DNA of 53,280 nucleotides from Escherichia coli (GCF_003334815.1 NZ_QOWO01000028.1); one strand, 5' to 3'. Positions 12,018-46,163 are shown, counted from the first letter of the stretch. The notes: generated by a model from the letters alone, not told the origin. Numbers and translations: made by a program.

Positions 12018-12094
<77 letters not shown>

Positions 12095-12184: not shown

Positions 12185-12270
12185 GTAGGCCTGATAAGAC
12201 GCGTCAGCGTCGCATCAGGCAAATGTGCCGGCCATTGTCGGATGCGGCGCGACCGCCTTATTCGACCTAC
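12185..12270. repeat. REP/BIME palindromic units
   Basis: GTAGGCCTGATAAGACGCGTCAGCGTCGCATCAGGC and a second degenerate GCCGGATGCGGCG...CCTAC unit, typical of E. coli REP elements. Confidence 0.55.
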
Positions 12271-12804
12271 ACGACACACATTTCCCTGCCAAATTTGCGC
12301 CCCATATCTCACTATCCATTAACGGATTTGTGACAGAAACCATTGTCTTTTTTTATATTTGCTTAAATCTTTTTTTGCGTTACTTATGGCTGGCCCTGGC
12401 ATTTTCCGCTGTGCGTTTTAGCGTTCATGGTATTAATCGCTCAGATATCCACCTTTTCCTCAGATTTTTTTCATTAAATGCATAAAACTTAATCACCAAA
12501 TGTTGCTAAATATTAAGCTGATTGTTCTGGTCATGTTGGAGTAGCACAAATTTCTCTGCTGCAAATAGCTGTTTGAAGTTTTTTTAATCTTTGTTTGTGG
12601 ATTCTCACCGTTGGTGTAAATCCCGGTTGGCTGTATTGACGTTTTCACATTCTGTTGACAGATTGTAGGTCACGAGGGGCATTTTATGGAGGATCCGCAC
12701 TGTTACACTGATGTTAATTAGTACGGCATCCCCACCTCATAACGTTGACCCGACCGGGCAAAAAACAAAAAAGGTCAGGCAGCGACAACCCACTGCAAAG
12801 GGTT

Positions 12805-12836: not shown

Positions 12837-14444
12837 ATGCGTATTTCCTTGAAAAAGTCAGGGATGCTGAAGCTTGGTCTCAGCCTGGTGGCTATGACCG
12901 TCGCAGCAAGTGTTCAGGCTAAAACTCTGGTTTATTGCTCAGAAGGATCTCCGGAAGGGTTTAACCCGCAGCTGTTTACCTCCGGCACCACCTATGACGC
13001 CTCTTCCGTCCCGCTTTATAACCGTCTGGTTGAATTTAAAATCGGCACCACCGAAGTGATCCCGGGCCTCGCTGAAAAGTGGGAAGTCAGCGAAGACGGT
13101 AAAACCTATACCTTCCATCTGCGTAAAGGTGTGAAGTGGCACGACAATAAAGAATTCAAACCGACGCGTGAACTGAACGCCGATGATGTGGTGTTCTCGT
13201 TCGATCGTCAGAAAAACGCGCAAAACCCGTACCATAAAGTTTCTGGCGGCAGCTACGAATACTTCGAAGGCATGGGCTTGCCAGAGCTGATCAGTGAAGT
13301 GAAAAAGGTGGACGACAACACCGTTCAGTTTGTGCTGACTCGCCCGGAAGCGCCGTTCCTCGCTGACCTGGCAATGGACTTCGCCTCTATTCTGTCAAAA
13401 GAATATGCTGATGCGATGATGAAAGCCGGTACACCGGAAAAACTGGACCTCAACCCAATCGGAACCGGTCCGTTCCAGTTACAGCAGTATCAAAAAGATT
13501 CCCGTATCCGCTACAAAGCGTTTGATGGCTACTGGGGCACCAAACCGCAGATCGATACGCTGGTTTTCTCTATTACCCCTGACGCTTCCGTGCGTTACGC
13601 GAAATTGCAGAAGAATGAATGCCAGGTGATGCCGTACCCGAACCCGGCAGATATCGCTCGCATGAAGCAGGATAAATCCATCAATCTGATGGAAATGCCG
13701 GGGCTGAACGTCGGTTATCTCTCGTATAACGTGCAGAAAAAACCACTCGATGACGTGAAAGTTCGCCAGGCTCTGACCTACGCGGTGAACAAAGACGCGA
13801 TCATCAAAGCGGTTTATCAGGGCGCGGGCGTATCAGCGAAAAACCTGATCCCGCCAACCATGTGGGGCTATAACGACGACGTTCAGGACTACACCTACGA
13901 TCCTGAAAAAGCGAAAGCCTTGCTGAAAGAAGCGGGTCTGGAAAAAGGTTTCTCCATCGACCTGTGGGCGATGCCGGTACAACGTCCGTATAACCCGAAC
14001 GCTCGCCGCATGGCGGAGATGATTCAGGCAGACTGGGCGAAAGTCGGCGTGCAGGCCAAAATTGTCACCTACGAATGGGGTGAGTACCTCAAGCGTGCGA
14101 AAGATGGCGAGCACCAGACGGTAATGATGGGCTGGACTGGCGATAACGGGGATCCGGATAACTTCTTCGCCACCCTGTTCAGCTGCGCCGCCTCTGAACA
14201 AGGCTCCAACTACTCAAAATGGTGCTACAAACCGTTTGAAGATCTGATTCAACCGGCGCGTGCTACCGACGACCACAATAAACGCGTTGAACTGTACAAA
14301 CAAGCGCAGGTGGTGATGCACGATCAGGCTCCGGCACTGATCATCGCTCACTCCACCGTGTTTGAACCGGTACGTAAAGAAGTTAAAGGCTATGTGGTTG
14401 ATCCATTAGGCAAACATCACTTCGAAAACGTCTCTATCGAATAA
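12837..14444 (+). CDS. dppA: Dipeptide ABC transporter periplasmic binding protein DppA (535 aa)
   Basis: Signal peptide followed by a family-5 solute-binding protein; first gene of the dppABCDF cluster. Confidence 0.97.
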   Translation: MRISLKKSGMLKLGLSLVAMTVAASVQAKTLVYCSEGSPEGFNPQLFTSGTTYDASSVPLYNRLVEFKIGTTEVIPGLAEKWEVSEDGKTYTFHLRKGVKWHDNKEFKPTRELNADDVVFSFDRQKNAQNPYHKVSGGSYEYFEGMGLPELISEVKKVDDNTVQFVLTRPEAPFLADLAMDFASILSKEYADAMMKAGTPEKLDLNPIGTGPFQLQQYQKDSRIRYKAFDGYWGTKPQIDTLVFSITPDASVRYAKLQKNECQVMPYPNPADIARMKQDKSINLMEMPGLNVGYLSYNVQKKPLDDVKVRQALTYAVNKDAIIKAVYQGAGVSAKNLIPPTMWGYNDDVQDYTYDPEKAKALLKEAGLEKGFSIDLWAMPVQRPYNPNARRMAEMIQADWAKVGVQAKIVTYEWGEYLKRAKDGEHQTVMMGWTGDNGDPDNFFATLFSCAASEQGSNYSKWCYKPFEDLIQPARATDDHNKRVELYKQAQVVMHDQAPALIIAHSTVFEPVRKEVKGYVVDPLGKHHFENVSIE

Positions 14445-14480
14445 TTAAAAGCCATACAAGACTGATGGCAAAGGCAAAAA

Positions 14481-14580
14481 TGCCTGATGCGCTCCGCTTA
14501 TCAGGCCTACGAAAATTCTGCAATGTATTGAATTTGCACGATTTTGTAGGCCGGATAAGGCGTTAACGCCGCATCCGGCA
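14481..14580. repeat. REP/BIME cluster in the dppA-dppB intergenic region
   Basis: TGCCTGATGCGCTCCGCTTATCAGGCCTAC and GTAGGCCGGATAAGGCGTTAACGCCGCATCCGGCA in inverted orientation. Confidence 0.7.
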
Positions 14581-14751
14581 TAAACAAAGCGCACTTTGTC
14601 AACAATCTGTATACCCGGTGGCGCTGTGCCTCTGCGTGCAGCGCCATCCGGCAGCAATACTTCATTCCCTGTCCGATAAGGGCGGGAATTGATTTGTGAG
14701 CAATACAGACACGCAGTTCCAGGCTGCGGGTCACTATAGAGAATCCGGGTT

Positions 14752-15771
14752 ATGTTGCAGTTTATTCTCCGACGTTTGGGACTCGTCATCCCCACGTTTA
14801 TCGGTATTACCCTTCTCACATTTGCCTTTGTCCACATGATCCCGGGCGATCCGGTGATGATCATGGCGGGCGAACGTGGGATCTCCCCAGAGCGTCACGC
14901 GCAGCTGCTGGCTGAACTCGGCTTAGATAAACCGATGTGGCAGCAGTATCTCCATTACATTTGGGGCGTTATGCATGGCGATCTAGGCATTTCAATGAAA
15001 AGCCGCATCCCGGTTTGGGAAGAGTTCGTGCCGCGCTTCCAGGCCACGCTGGAACTTGGCGTCTGCGCGATGATTTTTGCTACGGCAGTCGGTATTCCGG
15101 TCGGCGTGCTGGCTGCGGTTAAACGCGGTTCCATTTTCGATCACACAGCGGTTGGCCTGGCGCTGACAGGTTATTCAATGCCTATCTTCTGGTGGGGCAT
15201 GATGCTGATCATGCTGGTTTCGGTGCACTGGAACCTGACGCCCGTCTCCGGTCGCGTGAGCGATATGGTGTTCCTCGATGACTCCAATCCGTTAACCGGT
15301 TTTATGCTAATCGACACCGCCATCTGGGGTGAAGACGGCAACTTTATCGATGCCGTCGCCCATATGATCTTGCCTGCCATTGTGCTGGGTACTATTCCGC
15401 TGGCGGTCATTGTGCGTATGACACGCTCCTCGATGCTGGAAGTGCTGGGCGAGGATTACATCCGCACCGCGCGCGCCAAAGGGCTAACCCGCATGCGGGT
15501 GATTATCGTCCATGCGCTGCGTAACGCGATGCTGCCGGTGGTGACCGTTATCGGCCTGCAGGTGGGAACATTGCTGGCGGGGGCGATTCTGACCGAAACC
15601 ATCTTCTCGTGGCCCGGTCTGGGACGCTGGTTGATTGACGCACTGCAACGCCGCGACTATCCGGTAGTGCAGGGCGGCGTATTGCTGGTGGCGACGATGA
15701 TTATCCTCGTCAACTTGCTGGTCGATCTGCTGTACGGCGTGGTGAACCCGCGTATTCGTCATAAGAAGTAA
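14752..15771 (+). CDS. dppB: Dipeptide ABC transporter permease DppB (339 aa)
   Basis: ABC permease with multiple TM segments; operon position. Confidence 0.95.
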   Translation: MLQFILRRLGLVIPTFIGITLLTFAFVHMIPGDPVMIMAGERGISPERHAQLLAELGLDKPMWQQYLHYIWGVMHGDLGISMKSRIPVWEEFVPRFQATLELGVCAMIFATAVGIPVGVLAAVKRGSIFDHTAVGLALTGYSMPIFWWGMMLIMLVSVHWNLTPVSGRVSDMVFLDDSNPLTGFMLIDTAIWGEDGNFIDAVAHMILPAIVLGTIPLAVIVRMTRSSMLEVLGEDYIRTARAKGLTRMRVIIVHALRNAMLPVVTVIGLQVGTLLAGAILTETIFSWPGLGRWLIDALQRRDYPVVQGGVLLVATMIILVNLLVDLLYGVVNPRIRHKK

Positions 15772-15780
15772 GGGGACATC

Positions 15781-16683
15781 ATGTCACAGGTTACTGAAAA
15801 TAAAGTGATTAGCGCACCGGTGCCGATGACCCCGTTACAGGAGTTCTGGCACTATTTTAAACGCAACAAAGGCGCGGTCGTCGGGCTGGTTTACGTCGTC
15901 ATCGTGCTGTTCATCGCGATCTTTGCCAACTGGATTGCACCCTATAACCCGGCGGAACAGTTCCGCGATGCACTGCTCGCCCCGCCAGCCTGGCAGGAAG
16001 GCGGCAGCATGGCGCACTTGCTGGGCACCGATGACGTAGGCCGTGATGTGCTGTCGCGCCTGATGTACGGTGCGCGCCTGTCGCTGCTGGTTGGCTGTCT
16101 GGTAGTTGTGTTATCGCTGATTATGGGCGTTATTCTCGGCCTGATCGCCGGTTACTTTGGCGGCCTGGTCGATAACATCATTATGCGCGTGGTCGATATC
16201 ATGCTGGCGCTGCCAAGTCTGCTGCTGGCGCTGGTGCTGGTGGCAATTTTCGGCCCGTCGATTGGTAACGCCGCGCTGGCACTGACCTTCGTTGCCTTGC
16301 CGCACTATGTGCGCTTAACCCGCGCCGCCGTGCTGGTGGAAGTTAACCGCGATTACGTCACCGCGTCTCGCGTGGCGGGTGCCGGGGCGATGCGTCAGAT
16401 GTTTATTAACATCTTCCCGAACTGCCTTGCGCCGCTGATTGTTCAGGCGTCGCTCGGTTTCTCTAACGCCATTCTCGATATGGCTGCTCTTGGTTTCCTC
16501 GGCATGGGGGCACAGCCGCCAACGCCTGAGTGGGGCACCATGCTCTCCGACGTGTTGCAGTTCGCGCAAAGCGCCTGGTGGGTCGTGACCTTCCCGGGTC
16601 TGGCGATCCTGCTGACGGTGCTGGCATTTAACCTGATGGGTGACGGTCTGCGTGACGCGCTCGATCCCAAACTGAAGCAGTAA
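15781..16683 (+). CDS. dppC: Dipeptide ABC transporter permease DppC (300 aa)
   Basis: ABC permease; 9-bp gap after dppB. Confidence 0.95.
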
Positions 16684-16693
16684 GAGGTTCGAG

Positions 16694-17677
16694 ATGGCGT
16701 TATTAAATGTAGATAAATTATCGGTGCATTTCGGCGACGAAAGCGCGCCGTTCCGCGCCGTAGACCGCATCAGCTACAGCGTAAAACAGGGCGAAGTGGT
16801 CGGGATTGTGGGTGAGTCCGGCTCCGGTAAGTCGGTCAGTTCACTGGCGATTATGGGGCTGATTGATTATCCGGGCCGCGTAATGGCAGAAAAACTGGAG
16901 TTTAACGGCCAGGATTTGCAGCGTATCTCAGAAAAAGAGCGCCGCAACCTGGTGGGTGCCGAAGTGGCGATGATCTTCCAGGACCCGATGACCAGCCTTA
17001 ACCCGTGCTACACCGTGGGTTTCCAGATTATGGAAGCGATTAAGGTGCATCAGGGCGGCAACAAAAGTACCCGCCGTCAGCGAGCGATTGACCTGCTGAA
17101 TCAGGTCGGTATTCCCGATCCGGCATCGCGTCTGGATGTTTACCCGCATCAGCTTTCCGGCGGCATGAGCCAGCGCGTGATGATCGCCATGGCGATTGCC
17201 TGTCGGCCAAAACTGCTGATTGCCGATGAACCGACCACCGCGCTGGACGTGACCATTCAGGCGCAAATCATCGAACTACTGCTGGAGCTACAGCAGAAAG
17301 AGAACATGGCGCTGGTGTTAATTACCCATGACCTGGCGCTGGTGGCGGAAGCGGCACATAAAATCATCGTGATGTATGCAGGCCAGGTGGTGGAAACCGG
17401 TGATGCGCACGCCATCTTCCATGCGCCGCGTCACCCGTATACTCAGGCATTGCTGCGTGCGCTGCCAGAATTTGCTCAGGACAAAGAACGTCTGGCGTCG
17501 TTGCCAGGTGTCGTTCCCGGCAAGTACGACCGCCCGAACGGCTGCCTGCTTAACCCGCGCTGCCCCTATGCCACTGACAGATGTCGCGCTGAAGAACCGG
17601 CGCTGAATATGCTCGCTGACGGGCGTCAGTCCAAATGCCATTACCCACTTGATGATGCCGGGAGGCCGACACTATGA
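16694..17677 (+). CDS. dppD: Dipeptide ABC transporter ATP-binding protein DppD (327 aa)
   Basis: Walker [12 protein letters not shown] signature LSGGMSQR, Walker B LLIADEP. Confidence 0.95.
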
Positions 17678-18678
17678 GTACGCAAGAGGCCACCCTGCAA
17701 CAACCGCTGTTGCAGGCTATCGACCTGAAAAAACATTATCCGGTGAAGAAAGGCATGTTCGCGCCGGAACGTCTGGTTAAAGCGCTGGATGGCGTTTCGT
17801 TTAACCTTGAACGTGGCAAAACGCTGGCAGTAGTGGGCGAATCTGGCTGCGGTAAATCGACCCTCGGTCGGTTGCTGACGATGATTGAAATGCCCACCGG
17901 TGGCGAGCTGTATTACCAGGGGCAGGATCTGCTTAAGCACGATCCGCAGGCGCAGAAGCTGCGTCGGCAGAAAATCCAGATCGTCTTCCAGAACCCTTAC
18001 GGTTCGCTGAATCCGCGTAAAAAAGTCGGGCAAATTCTTGAAGAGCCGCTGCTGATCAACACCAGCTTAAGCAAAGAACAGCGTCGGGAAAAAGCCCTGT
18101 CGATGATGGCGAAAGTCGGCCTGAAAACCGAGCACTATGACCGCTATCCGCATATGTTCTCCGGCGGTCAGCGTCAGCGTATCGCCATCGCCCGTGGTCT
18201 GATGCTCGACCCGGATGTGGTGATTGCCGATGAACCGGTTTCCGCGCTGGATGTTTCAGTGCGCGCGCAGGTGCTGAATCTGATGATGGATTTGCAGCAG
18301 GAGTTGGGGCTGTCTTATGTCTTTATCTCCCACGACCTGTCGGTGGTGGAGCACATTGCTGATGAAGTGATGGTGATGTACCTGGGCCGCTGCGTGGAGA
18401 AGGGAACGAAAGACCAAATCTTCAATAACCCGCGCCATCCGTACACTCAGGCGCTACTTTCCGCGACGCCGCGCCTGAACCCGGACGATCGCCGCGAGCG
18501 CATCAAGCTCAGCGGTGAACTACCAAGCCCACTGAATCCACCGCCGGGTTGCGCCTTCAACGCCCGCTGTCGTCGGCGCTTCGGCCCCTGCACCCAGTTG
18601 CAGCCGCAGCTAAAAGACTACGGCGGTCAACTGGTAGCTTGTTTTGCTGTTGATCAGGATGAAAATCCGCAGCGTTAA
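17674..18678 (+). CDS. dppF: Dipeptide ABC transporter ATP-binding protein DppF (334 aa)
   Basis: Walker A GESGCGKS, signature FSGGQRQR; 4-bp ATGA overlap with dppD. Confidence 0.95.
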
Positions 18679-44258: not shown

Positions 44259-44421
44259 TTGCCGGATGTCTGACATCCGGCAATTAAACAGATTTAGATT
44301 GTTGGCAAAGTGTGCTTTGTTCATGCCGGATGCGGCGTGAACGCCTTATCCGGCCTACAAATCCTTGCGAATTCAATATATTGTATGGAAATTCAGGCCT
44401 GATAAGCGTAGCGCATCAGGC
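44259..44421. repeat. REP/BIME cluster between yhjG and yhjE
   Basis: TTGCCGGATGTCTGACATCCGGCAA, TGCCGGATGCGGCGTGAACGCCTTATCCGGCCTACA and AGGCCTGATAAGCGTAGCGCATCAGGC. Confidence 0.7.
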
Positions 44422-46066: not shown

Positions 46067-46163
46067 TAGCCGGATGCGATGCTGGCGCATCTTATCCGGC
46101 CTACGGGGAGCCAGGCCGAATAAAATCGTATGCCGGATAAGGCGTTTACGCCGCATCCGGCCT
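46067..46163. repeat. REP/BIME pair between yhjE and yhjD
   Basis: GCCGGATGCGATGCTGGCGCATCTTATCCGGCCTAC and TGCCGGATAAGGCGTTTACGCCGCATCCGGCCTAT in inverted orientation. Confidence 0.7.

Follow-up and report, generated by a model that had tools for sequence, protein, structure and literature searches.

Which part of the dppA–dppB spacer of Escherichia coli makes the message for the dipeptide-binding protein more abundant than that for the remaining dpp genes, and are the REP sequences in the spacer responsible? In ABC operons, REP or BIME elements that follow the binding-protein gene are a textbook source of differential expression (malEFG, hisJQMP), and the 1994 description of the dpp operon is said to have noted a RIP element between dppA and dppB already. 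The element is of a known kind at a known locus, and already known, and the dpp copy sits in the best-annotated bacterial genome; the modest extras are a strain polymorphism of BIME-1 and a conserved, covarying dppB leader hairpin that is unannotated. The DNA analysed (53,280 nucleotides, hereafter the window) is E. coli K-12-like, and dppA is the first gene of the operon:

12837–14444, + strand: dppA, open reading frame of the periplasmic dipeptide-binding protein (NCBIfam DppA_dipep equivalog, 1178 bits over 1–535)
14442–14444, + strand: dppA stop codon, TAA
14445–14751, + strand: dppA–dppB spacer, 307 bp
14752–15771, + strand: dppB, open reading frame of the permease (full-length NCBIfam DppB equivalog, 757 bits)
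15781–16683: dppC, open reading frame (full-length NCBIfam equivalog)
16694–17677: dppD, open reading frame (full-length NCBIfam equivalog)
17674–18678: dppF, open reading frame (full-length NCBIfam equivalog)

The spacer is identical to MG1655 3705791–3706097, where it lies on the opposite strand. It measures 307 bp, whereas the remaining junctions of the operon are short (9 bp, 10 bp, and a 4-bp overlap), and the 307-nt spacer RNA has a fold z of −7.2. An earlier note on this DNA had placed a REP/BIME block with inverted REP units inside the dpp operon, in a 307-bp spacer at 14445–14751. The coordinates are exact, as the flanking reading frames end at 14444 and start at 14752; the block does lie within the operon, with dppA upstream and dppBCDF downstream, all assigned by NCBIfam equivalogs; and the inverted REP units are two in number (14482–14510 and 14546–14580), arranged tail to tail. 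Beyond that account, (i) the REPs belong to a discrete BIME-1, whose linker is of the IHF type, (ii) three more hairpins lie 3′ of BIME-1, and (iii) the BIME portion is absent in many strains.

The BIME-1 block is composed of the following elements:

from 14458: BIME-1 flank motif 1
14482–14510, + strand: REP unit 1, Y-type (GCCTGATGCGCTCCGCTTATCAGGCCTAC), head GCCTGATG and tail GGCCTAC, hairpin of −13.2 kcal/mol
14511–14545: BIME-1 linker (L motif), 35 bp, between the REP units
14533→14521, − strand (MG1655 3706009–3706021): IHF-like site ATTCAATACATTG, agreeing with WATCAANNNNTTR at 12 of 13 positions
14546–14580, − strand: REP unit 2, Z1-type, inverted (GTAGGCCGGATAAGGCGTTAACGCCGCATCCGGC at 14546–14579), hairpin of −21.9 kcal/mol
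up to 14609: BIME-1 flank motif 2

REP unit 1 begins with GCCTGATGCG and ends with CTTATCAGGCCTAC. In REP unit 2 the GTAG tail comes first and the head GCCGGATGCG is on the minus strand; the naRNA4 (REP) model of Rfam gives a partial match to this unit (38 bits). Both units are imperfect palindromes of the REP kind (~30–40 nt, head GCC(G/T)GATG, tail GGCCTAC), with exact matches of the head motif at the spacer units. Shuffled sequence would be expected to give the tail motif TTATCMGGCCTAC 0.12 times; the window has 6 copies, among them the 2 inverted ones described here. The block is also dispersed, multi-copy, and extragenic, as REPs are, matching a median of 7 places per E. coli genome. With a Y REP and a Z1 REP set tail to tail about an L motif of ~35 bp, it is a canonical, complete BIME-1 (RIP/RIB) made of bona fide REPs. 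It does not differ in structure from other BIME-1 elements of E. coli, with which it shares the Y REP, the L linker with IHF consensus, the Z1 REP, the tail-to-tail order, and the extragenic position; the dpp copy differs in being strain-polymorphic and in having no RNA 3′ end (described below). The 2 REP units can also pair together into a single hairpin of −46.7 kcal/mol.

BIME-1 elements, as described in the RIP/RIB literature, bind IHF. The linker site is the sole match to the IHF pattern WATCAANNNNTTR in the spacer, where 0.31 would be expected, and is a probable IHF site. The minus strand of the linker (14545→14503) also resembles the sRNA ES036 (CssrF, Rfam RF02751), at 56.7 bits, where the gathering score is 37.6. 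The ES036 model matches linkers of unrelated BIME-1 copies equally and does not match the short allele of the spacer; the match therefore marks the repeat, and a locus-specific antisense sRNA was rejected.

REP sequences occur elsewhere in the window. Clusters of exact head and tail motifs are found at 44325–44421 and 46069–46161, and a second REP pair lies at 12188–12267 on the minus strand (cluster from 12185; Rfam naRNA4, 69 bits, above the gathering threshold). This pair is upstream of the dppA promoter region and adjoins the tRNA-Pro gene proK (12018–12091), so that dppA is bracketed by REP elements.

Downstream of BIME-1, the spacer continues with 3 hairpins, the last of which belongs to a conserved dppB leader:

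14615–14651, + strand: hairpin 3, 15 bp with one bulge, −27.3 kcal/mol, no U-tract after it
14664–14689, + strand: hairpin 4, terminator-like, −13.1 kcal/mol; the site runs to 14698 with AAUUGAUUUGUG
14695–14751, + strand: conserved dppB leader, consisting of TGTGAGCAAT, hairpin 5, and ACAGAGAATCCGGGTT
14695–14704, + strand: near-invariant leader motif TGTGAGCAAT
14708–14732, + strand: hairpin 5, −12.7 kcal/mol, 19 nt upstream of the dppB ATG

Hairpin 3 is the strongest compact hairpin of the spacer, and published transcript ends point to it. The spacer contains a single curated Term-seq 3′ end (Adams et al. 2021, PMC7815308, supplementary file 1), at MG1655 3705889 on the minus strand, which corresponds to window position 14653, two bases past hairpin 3 (context ...GTGCAGCGCCATCCGGCAGCAATACTTC). 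This end is reproducible in all three conditions of that study (LB OD 0.4, LB OD 2.0, and M63), gives dppA a 3′ UTR of 209 nt in K-12, and is not followed by a U-tract. No curated Term-seq 3′ end falls within MG1655 3705900–3706099, the interval that covers the BIME (PMC7815308). That analysis dropped multi-mapping reads, so 3′ ends in repeated REPs could be under-called; aligned BIME-1 copies are only ~90% identical, so most reads there should stay unique. The mapping of 3′ ends, proposed in the earlier note as a check, thus yields a reproducible end inside the spacer, but one that sits by hairpin 3 and not at the REPs. A 3′ end at the base of the hairpin, as expected of a REP stabiliser, is accordingly found for hairpin 3 (14653) and for neither of the 2 canonical REPs.

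Neither hairpin 3 nor hairpin 4 has the form of an intrinsic terminator, that is, a GC-rich hairpin directly followed by a U-tract. Hairpin 3 was rejected in this role because it is followed by CAGCAAUACUUC and by no U-tract. Hairpin 4 together with AAUUGAUUUG gives a weak, interrupted match, and no curated Term-seq 3′ end is located there; other genera have a stronger hairpin at this position.

Hairpin 3 is single-copy, matching a median of 1 place per genome, and the distal 152 bp of the spacer (14600–14751, hairpins 3 to 5) are likewise single-copy and present in 5423 of the 5426 complete E. coli genomes. Hairpin 3 has no GTAG/CTAC tail and no naRNA4/REP match in Rfam at E ≤ 10; being single-copy, without a canonical tail, and without a match to the REP model, it was rejected as an ordinary dispersed REP. 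Alignment nonetheless relates it to REPs: (i) its two arms match, one by one, the outer halves of the tail-to-tail REP doublet that Leclercia, Superficieibacter, and strain RIT691 have at this site; (ii) it aligns with the canonical right-hand REP GTAGGCCGGATAAGCGCAGCGCCATCCGGC of Citrobacter werkmanii; and (iii) compared with the REP doublets of other genera, E. coli is without the central ~30 nt (both tails and the inner half-stems), which leaves a compact, near-perfect hairpin. Judged from these alignments, hairpin 3 is REP-derived and is not itself a REP. Since hairpin 3 derives from a REP, the idea of dppA mRNA being protected by a REP-type hairpin still holds in spirit. The canonical REPs in view do not identify the functional hairpin; the mapped 3′ end belongs to a degenerate, single-copy REP relic. 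A REP named ‘REPv266b’ is listed for dppA in a 2023 study (PMC10100675), and this label may denote a variant of hairpin 3.

Transcript abundance changes across the junction. In DirectRNA-seq data (PMC7815308, supplementary file 2), coverage around window position 14875 is 234 reads upstream and 64 downstream, and in the presence of the Rho inhibitor bicyclomycin it is 250 upstream and 141 downstream. The drop is ~3.7-fold, and about half of it is relieved by bicyclomycin. The Rho score is 2.06 (p = 3.6e-5), with its peak at MG1655 3705667 (window 14875), 124 nt into dppB (PMC7815308); the score uses 800-nt windows, so that the drop is not localisable within the spacer or dppB. Read-through in the PMC7815308 data thus rises upon Rho inhibition, which is the behaviour of a Rho-dependent terminator. 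Tiling arrays also revealed a transcription break in the E. coli dpp operon (Brooks et al. 2014, PMC4299497), where, according to the same authors, the original 1994 study had described a single dpp transcript. The upstream message thus exceeds the downstream one, as a stabiliser would have it, by read counts (234 versus 64) and by the array break. The coverage step that the earlier note had suggested looking for is present in both data sets, and the uniform dppA–dppB abundance that it had named as contrary evidence was not observed. As for the stabilisation of dppA mRNA by REP hairpins that it had proposed, the step and a 3′ end in the spacer do exist, but the end is at hairpin 3, about half of the step is Rho-dependent with its peak in early dppB, and BIME-1 is missing in ~40% of genomes (described below).

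Taken with the spacer structure, these data make it fairly probable that the spacer acts, in several layers, as both 3′ UTR and attenuator within the operon, and so raises dppA mRNA above dppBCDF mRNA. Transcription that starts at the dppA promoter runs into the 307-nt untranslated spacer, and uncoupled transcription over this length would let Rho load and terminate in early dppB (~14875). Some transcripts may instead end at the weak terminator-like hairpin 4, or be cut in the AU-rich stretch beyond it. The ended transcripts would then be trimmed 3′ to 5′ until the exonucleases stall at hairpin 3, and trimming would leave a protected dppA message with the 209-nt 3′ UTR. Read-through molecules would carry the conserved dppB leader and supply the lower level of dppBCDF. 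BIME-1 would be an accessory layer inside the 3′ UTR and not the core device.

The trimming step has a precedent in Rho-terminated transcripts, which are trimmed to a stable hairpin without a U-run that protects the 3′ end (Dar and Sorek, PMC6061677). The dpp junction resembles these transcripts in its precise end just past a stable stem-loop without a U-run and in its bicyclomycin-sensitive read-through downstream; it differs in being intra-operon, so that termination there is partial by necessity. The REP stabilisers of malE–malF and hisJ–hisQ (Newbury et al. 1987, cited in PMC6061677) are similar in that the binding-protein gene comes first and is followed by a structured spacer, the upstream mRNA is the commoner, and the 3′ end coincides with the base of a stable hairpin that no U-tract follows; the putative protecting hairpin of dpp differs in being a single-copy REP derivative and not a canonical REP. 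A further parallel is REP325 in yjdMN, for which a dual role as terminator and stabiliser was established by experiment and matches the dpp pattern (Harris et al. 2026, bioRxiv 10.64898/2026.03.23.713779). REP325 is a BIME-2-like array of 12 units that was deletion-tested, whereas the dpp spacer has a BIME-1 and a relic hairpin. The same study reported that REP locations vary between strains.

The dpp spacer itself varies between strains. Every one of the 5426 complete E. coli genomes has a match to part of the spacer, and 3249 of them match at least 80% of it. These 3249 (~60%) have the long form with BIME-1, which is absent in ~40%. All 4 sampled non-carriers (O157:H7 SS17, strain 144, strain C7, and O111:NM) have a spacer of 150 bp, and alignment of the 150-bp alleles (O157:H7 SS17 and strain 144) showed that they are without exactly one segment:

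14458–14614: indel polymorphism, 157 bp, consisting of the BIME-1 unit (14458–14609) and TATAC (14610–14614)

The insertion is flanked by CATAC (14453–14457) and TATAC (14610–14614), where the short allele has a single CATAC. This may be either a target-site-duplication-like repeat or a microhomology, and it bears on how BIMEs move. The BIME-1 copies at mog–satP and beside sinI are homologous to the dpp copy over 14458–14609 and no further, and the 152-bp unit with its flanks is ~90% identical to both. This indel, made up of a single family unit and a 5-bp repeat, bears the mark of an insertion. The sampled genera other than Escherichia have no BIME-1, and their spacers resemble the short allele (TTAAAAGCnAT with a hairpin directly after), so that the short form is ancestral. 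The long allele is old, because long copies diverge by up to ~5% within E. coli and BIME-1 is also present in the E. albertii type strain. E. coli P276M has an aberrant 293-bp spacer, which is normal as far as midway through the second REP; from that point up to dppB, a gene annotated there as a pseudogene, it is only ~72% identical to K-12. The locus may be degraded or poorly assembled, and this spacer was left out of the allele comparison.

The insertion point is 13 nt 3′ of the dppA stop codon and upstream of hairpin 3. The distance from the stop codon to hairpin 3 thereby changes from 13 nt in the short allele to 170 nt in the long one, and BIME-1 doubles the untranslated length and adds up to −47 kcal/mol of structure to the 3′ UTR. 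REPs at ~13 nt from a stop codon reportedly interfere with translation termination, a finding ascribed to Liang, Rudd and Deutscher (2015). The 157-bp polymorphism offers a ready-made natural experiment on what the BIME adds to the operon.

For the comparison across Enterobacterales, we scanned for DppB in one genome per species and obtained 32 loci with dppA immediately upstream. The dppA–dppB spacer is 109 to 458 bp and is long in all 32 loci; excluding its last 60 nt, it is significantly structured in 27 of the 32 species (z < −2, median −4.4). A hairpin of −19 to −57 kcal/mol that fits within 70 nt occurs in each of the 32 spacers, mostly starting no more than ~30 nt from the dppA stop codon. 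The hairpins after dppA belong to different families: (i) REP doublets in Leclercia, Citrobacter, Superficieibacter, and strain RIT691; (ii) CCCTCTCCC/GGGAGAGGG repeats, which look BoxC-like, in Pseudocitrobacter, several ‘Enterobacter’ strains, and Pluralibacter; and (iii) plain terminators with U-runs in Pectobacterium and Brenneria. A strong hairpin after dppA is constant and the repeat family is interchangeable, which argues for selection on structure and not on REP identity. The distribution of families suggests repeated, independent capture of hairpin-forming repeats at the post-dppA site, and the structural conservation is as would be expected if a 3′ barrier or attenuator after dppA is the selected feature.

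Some of these spacers have an architecture of their own. In several genera, long CCCTCTCCC...GGGAGAGGG...GGGTGAGGG hairpins replace the REPs after dppA. The 458-bp spacer of Brenneria roseae contains 4 tandem units of ~90 nt, each ending in a terminator-like hairpin with a U-run (AAAATCGCTCCTGGCGATTTTTT), and Pectobacterium has one copy of the Brenneria-type unit directly before the conserved TGTGAGCAAT.

The last ~57 nt of the spacer are conserved across Enterobacterales far beyond the rest. This leader comprises the near-invariant motif, hairpin 5, and ACAGAGAATCCGGGTT, which precedes the dppB ATG and includes the ribosome-binding region. Eight sequences and a 9-bp stem specified by hand went into a covariance model (R1), which recovers the leader in 30 loci. 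In the stem, 86% of cells are paired and compensatory changes occur in 8 of the 9 pairs; the covariation score reaches 0.383, compared with 0.121 ± 0.020 for shuffled alignments (none of 500 as high) and no more than 0.10 with slid partners, figures that are somewhat inflated because the alignment was fitted to R1. The stems of Erwinia, Pantoea, and Pectobacterium have wholly different sequences and still pair. RNAalifold predicted no pairs on a MAFFT alignment of the leader, because the variable stem is misaligned there; the hand-specified structure and the covariance model resolved it. The leader matches no Rfam family and contains no promoter-like site. Two ideas checked by eye were dropped, namely pairing with OmrA/B or GcvB (at most 6 contiguous pairs) and CRP- or LacI-type operator symmetry around TGTGAGC (at most one half-site).

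The leader, with its motif UGUGAGCAAU and a hairpin whose pairing is kept through full sequence turnover, could set the expression of dppBCDF independently of dppA. It could be bound by a protein or an sRNA, or RNase E could process it just ahead of a 5′ hairpin that protects the product; our leading guess is a processing site (GA|UUU after hairpin 4) and then a protective 5′ hairpin. It is possible, although less likely than not, that an uncharacterised cis-acting dppB leader RNA or a natural regulatory allele in the form of BIME-1, at least one of the two, is functionally real. If BIME-1 is regulatory, the DppA:DppBCDF stoichiometry would differ between E. coli lineages with the short allele (such as O157 and O111) and those with the long one (K-12-type), and the insertion doubles the Rho-accessible untranslated tract in K-12-type strains.

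The best-surviving alternative, a real possibility although we put it below even, is that BIME-1 is a selectively neutral (selfish) insertion and that all regulation resides in the ancestral 150-bp spacer. Its presence/absence polymorphism is what such an insertion would display, as are indel edges that coincide with the edges of the family unit, a short ATAC repeat at both junctions, an outgroup (ancestral) state without BIME-1, and a 3′ end that maps outside BIME-1. Against neutrality, the long allele is old and retained, with ~5% divergence without loss and a copy in the E. albertii type strain, and it alters both the stop-to-hairpin distance and the untranslated length, which matter elsewhere.

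An action of BIME-1 chiefly on DNA appears unlikely. IHF bound to the linker, perhaps joined by gyrase or Pol I at the REPs, would here bend or insulate the DNA between the highly and weakly expressed parts of the operon, and effects on RNA would be incidental. The linker speaks for this reading, as a family-typical L motif and as the one place in the spacer that fits the IHF consensus (at 12 of 13 positions; 0.31 such matches expected). The short-allele strains are without the IHF-like site, however, and the site is therefore dispensable.

More doubtful still is the reading in which the 2 canonical REPs of the BIME stall 3′ exonucleases and so set dppA above dppBCDF, as at malE–malF. The REP units are genuine and transcribed within the operon, the Z1 hairpin (−21.9 kcal/mol) and the whole BIME (−46.7 kcal/mol) are stable, REP-mediated mRNA stabilisation is established in other operons (Newbury et al. 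1987, as cited in PMC6061677), and the filtering of multi-mapping reads from the Term-seq data could work against the detection of ends there. But the three conditions yielded no 3′ end at either REP, the sole end being at hairpin 3; part of the step is Rho-dependent; and ~40% of E. coli and the other genera keep a structured spacer without the BIME. BIME-1, being absent in ~40% of E. coli and in the other genera sampled, cannot be required for the excess of dppA over dppBCDF.

An internal promoter in the spacer, which would give dppBCDF its own start and turn the step into two transcription units, is very improbable: Brooks et al. (PMC4299497) propose condition-specific isoforms of the dpp operon and the dppB leader is strongly conserved, but no sigma-70-like promoter occurs on either strand of 14300–14900, the leader behaves as an RNA hairpin with compensatory changes, and the internal promoter found by genomic SELEX sits at dppB/dppC and not in the spacer. 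The SMRT-Cappable-seq supplements have no dpp entry.

Two further transcript ends were noted around dppA (PMC7815308). At window position 12742 (MG1655 3707800, −), 95 nt upstream of the dppA start, is a Term-seq 3′ end of very high abundance (0.8 to 3.5 million reads), with a Rho score of 1.09 and a low intrinsic-terminator score; it is possibly a 5′ UTR-derived RNA or a premature termination site. A low-abundance 3′ end at 14166 (MG1655 3706376, + there) is antisense to dppA and lies in its 3′ part, and the start of the RNA that ends there could lie in or beyond the spacer.
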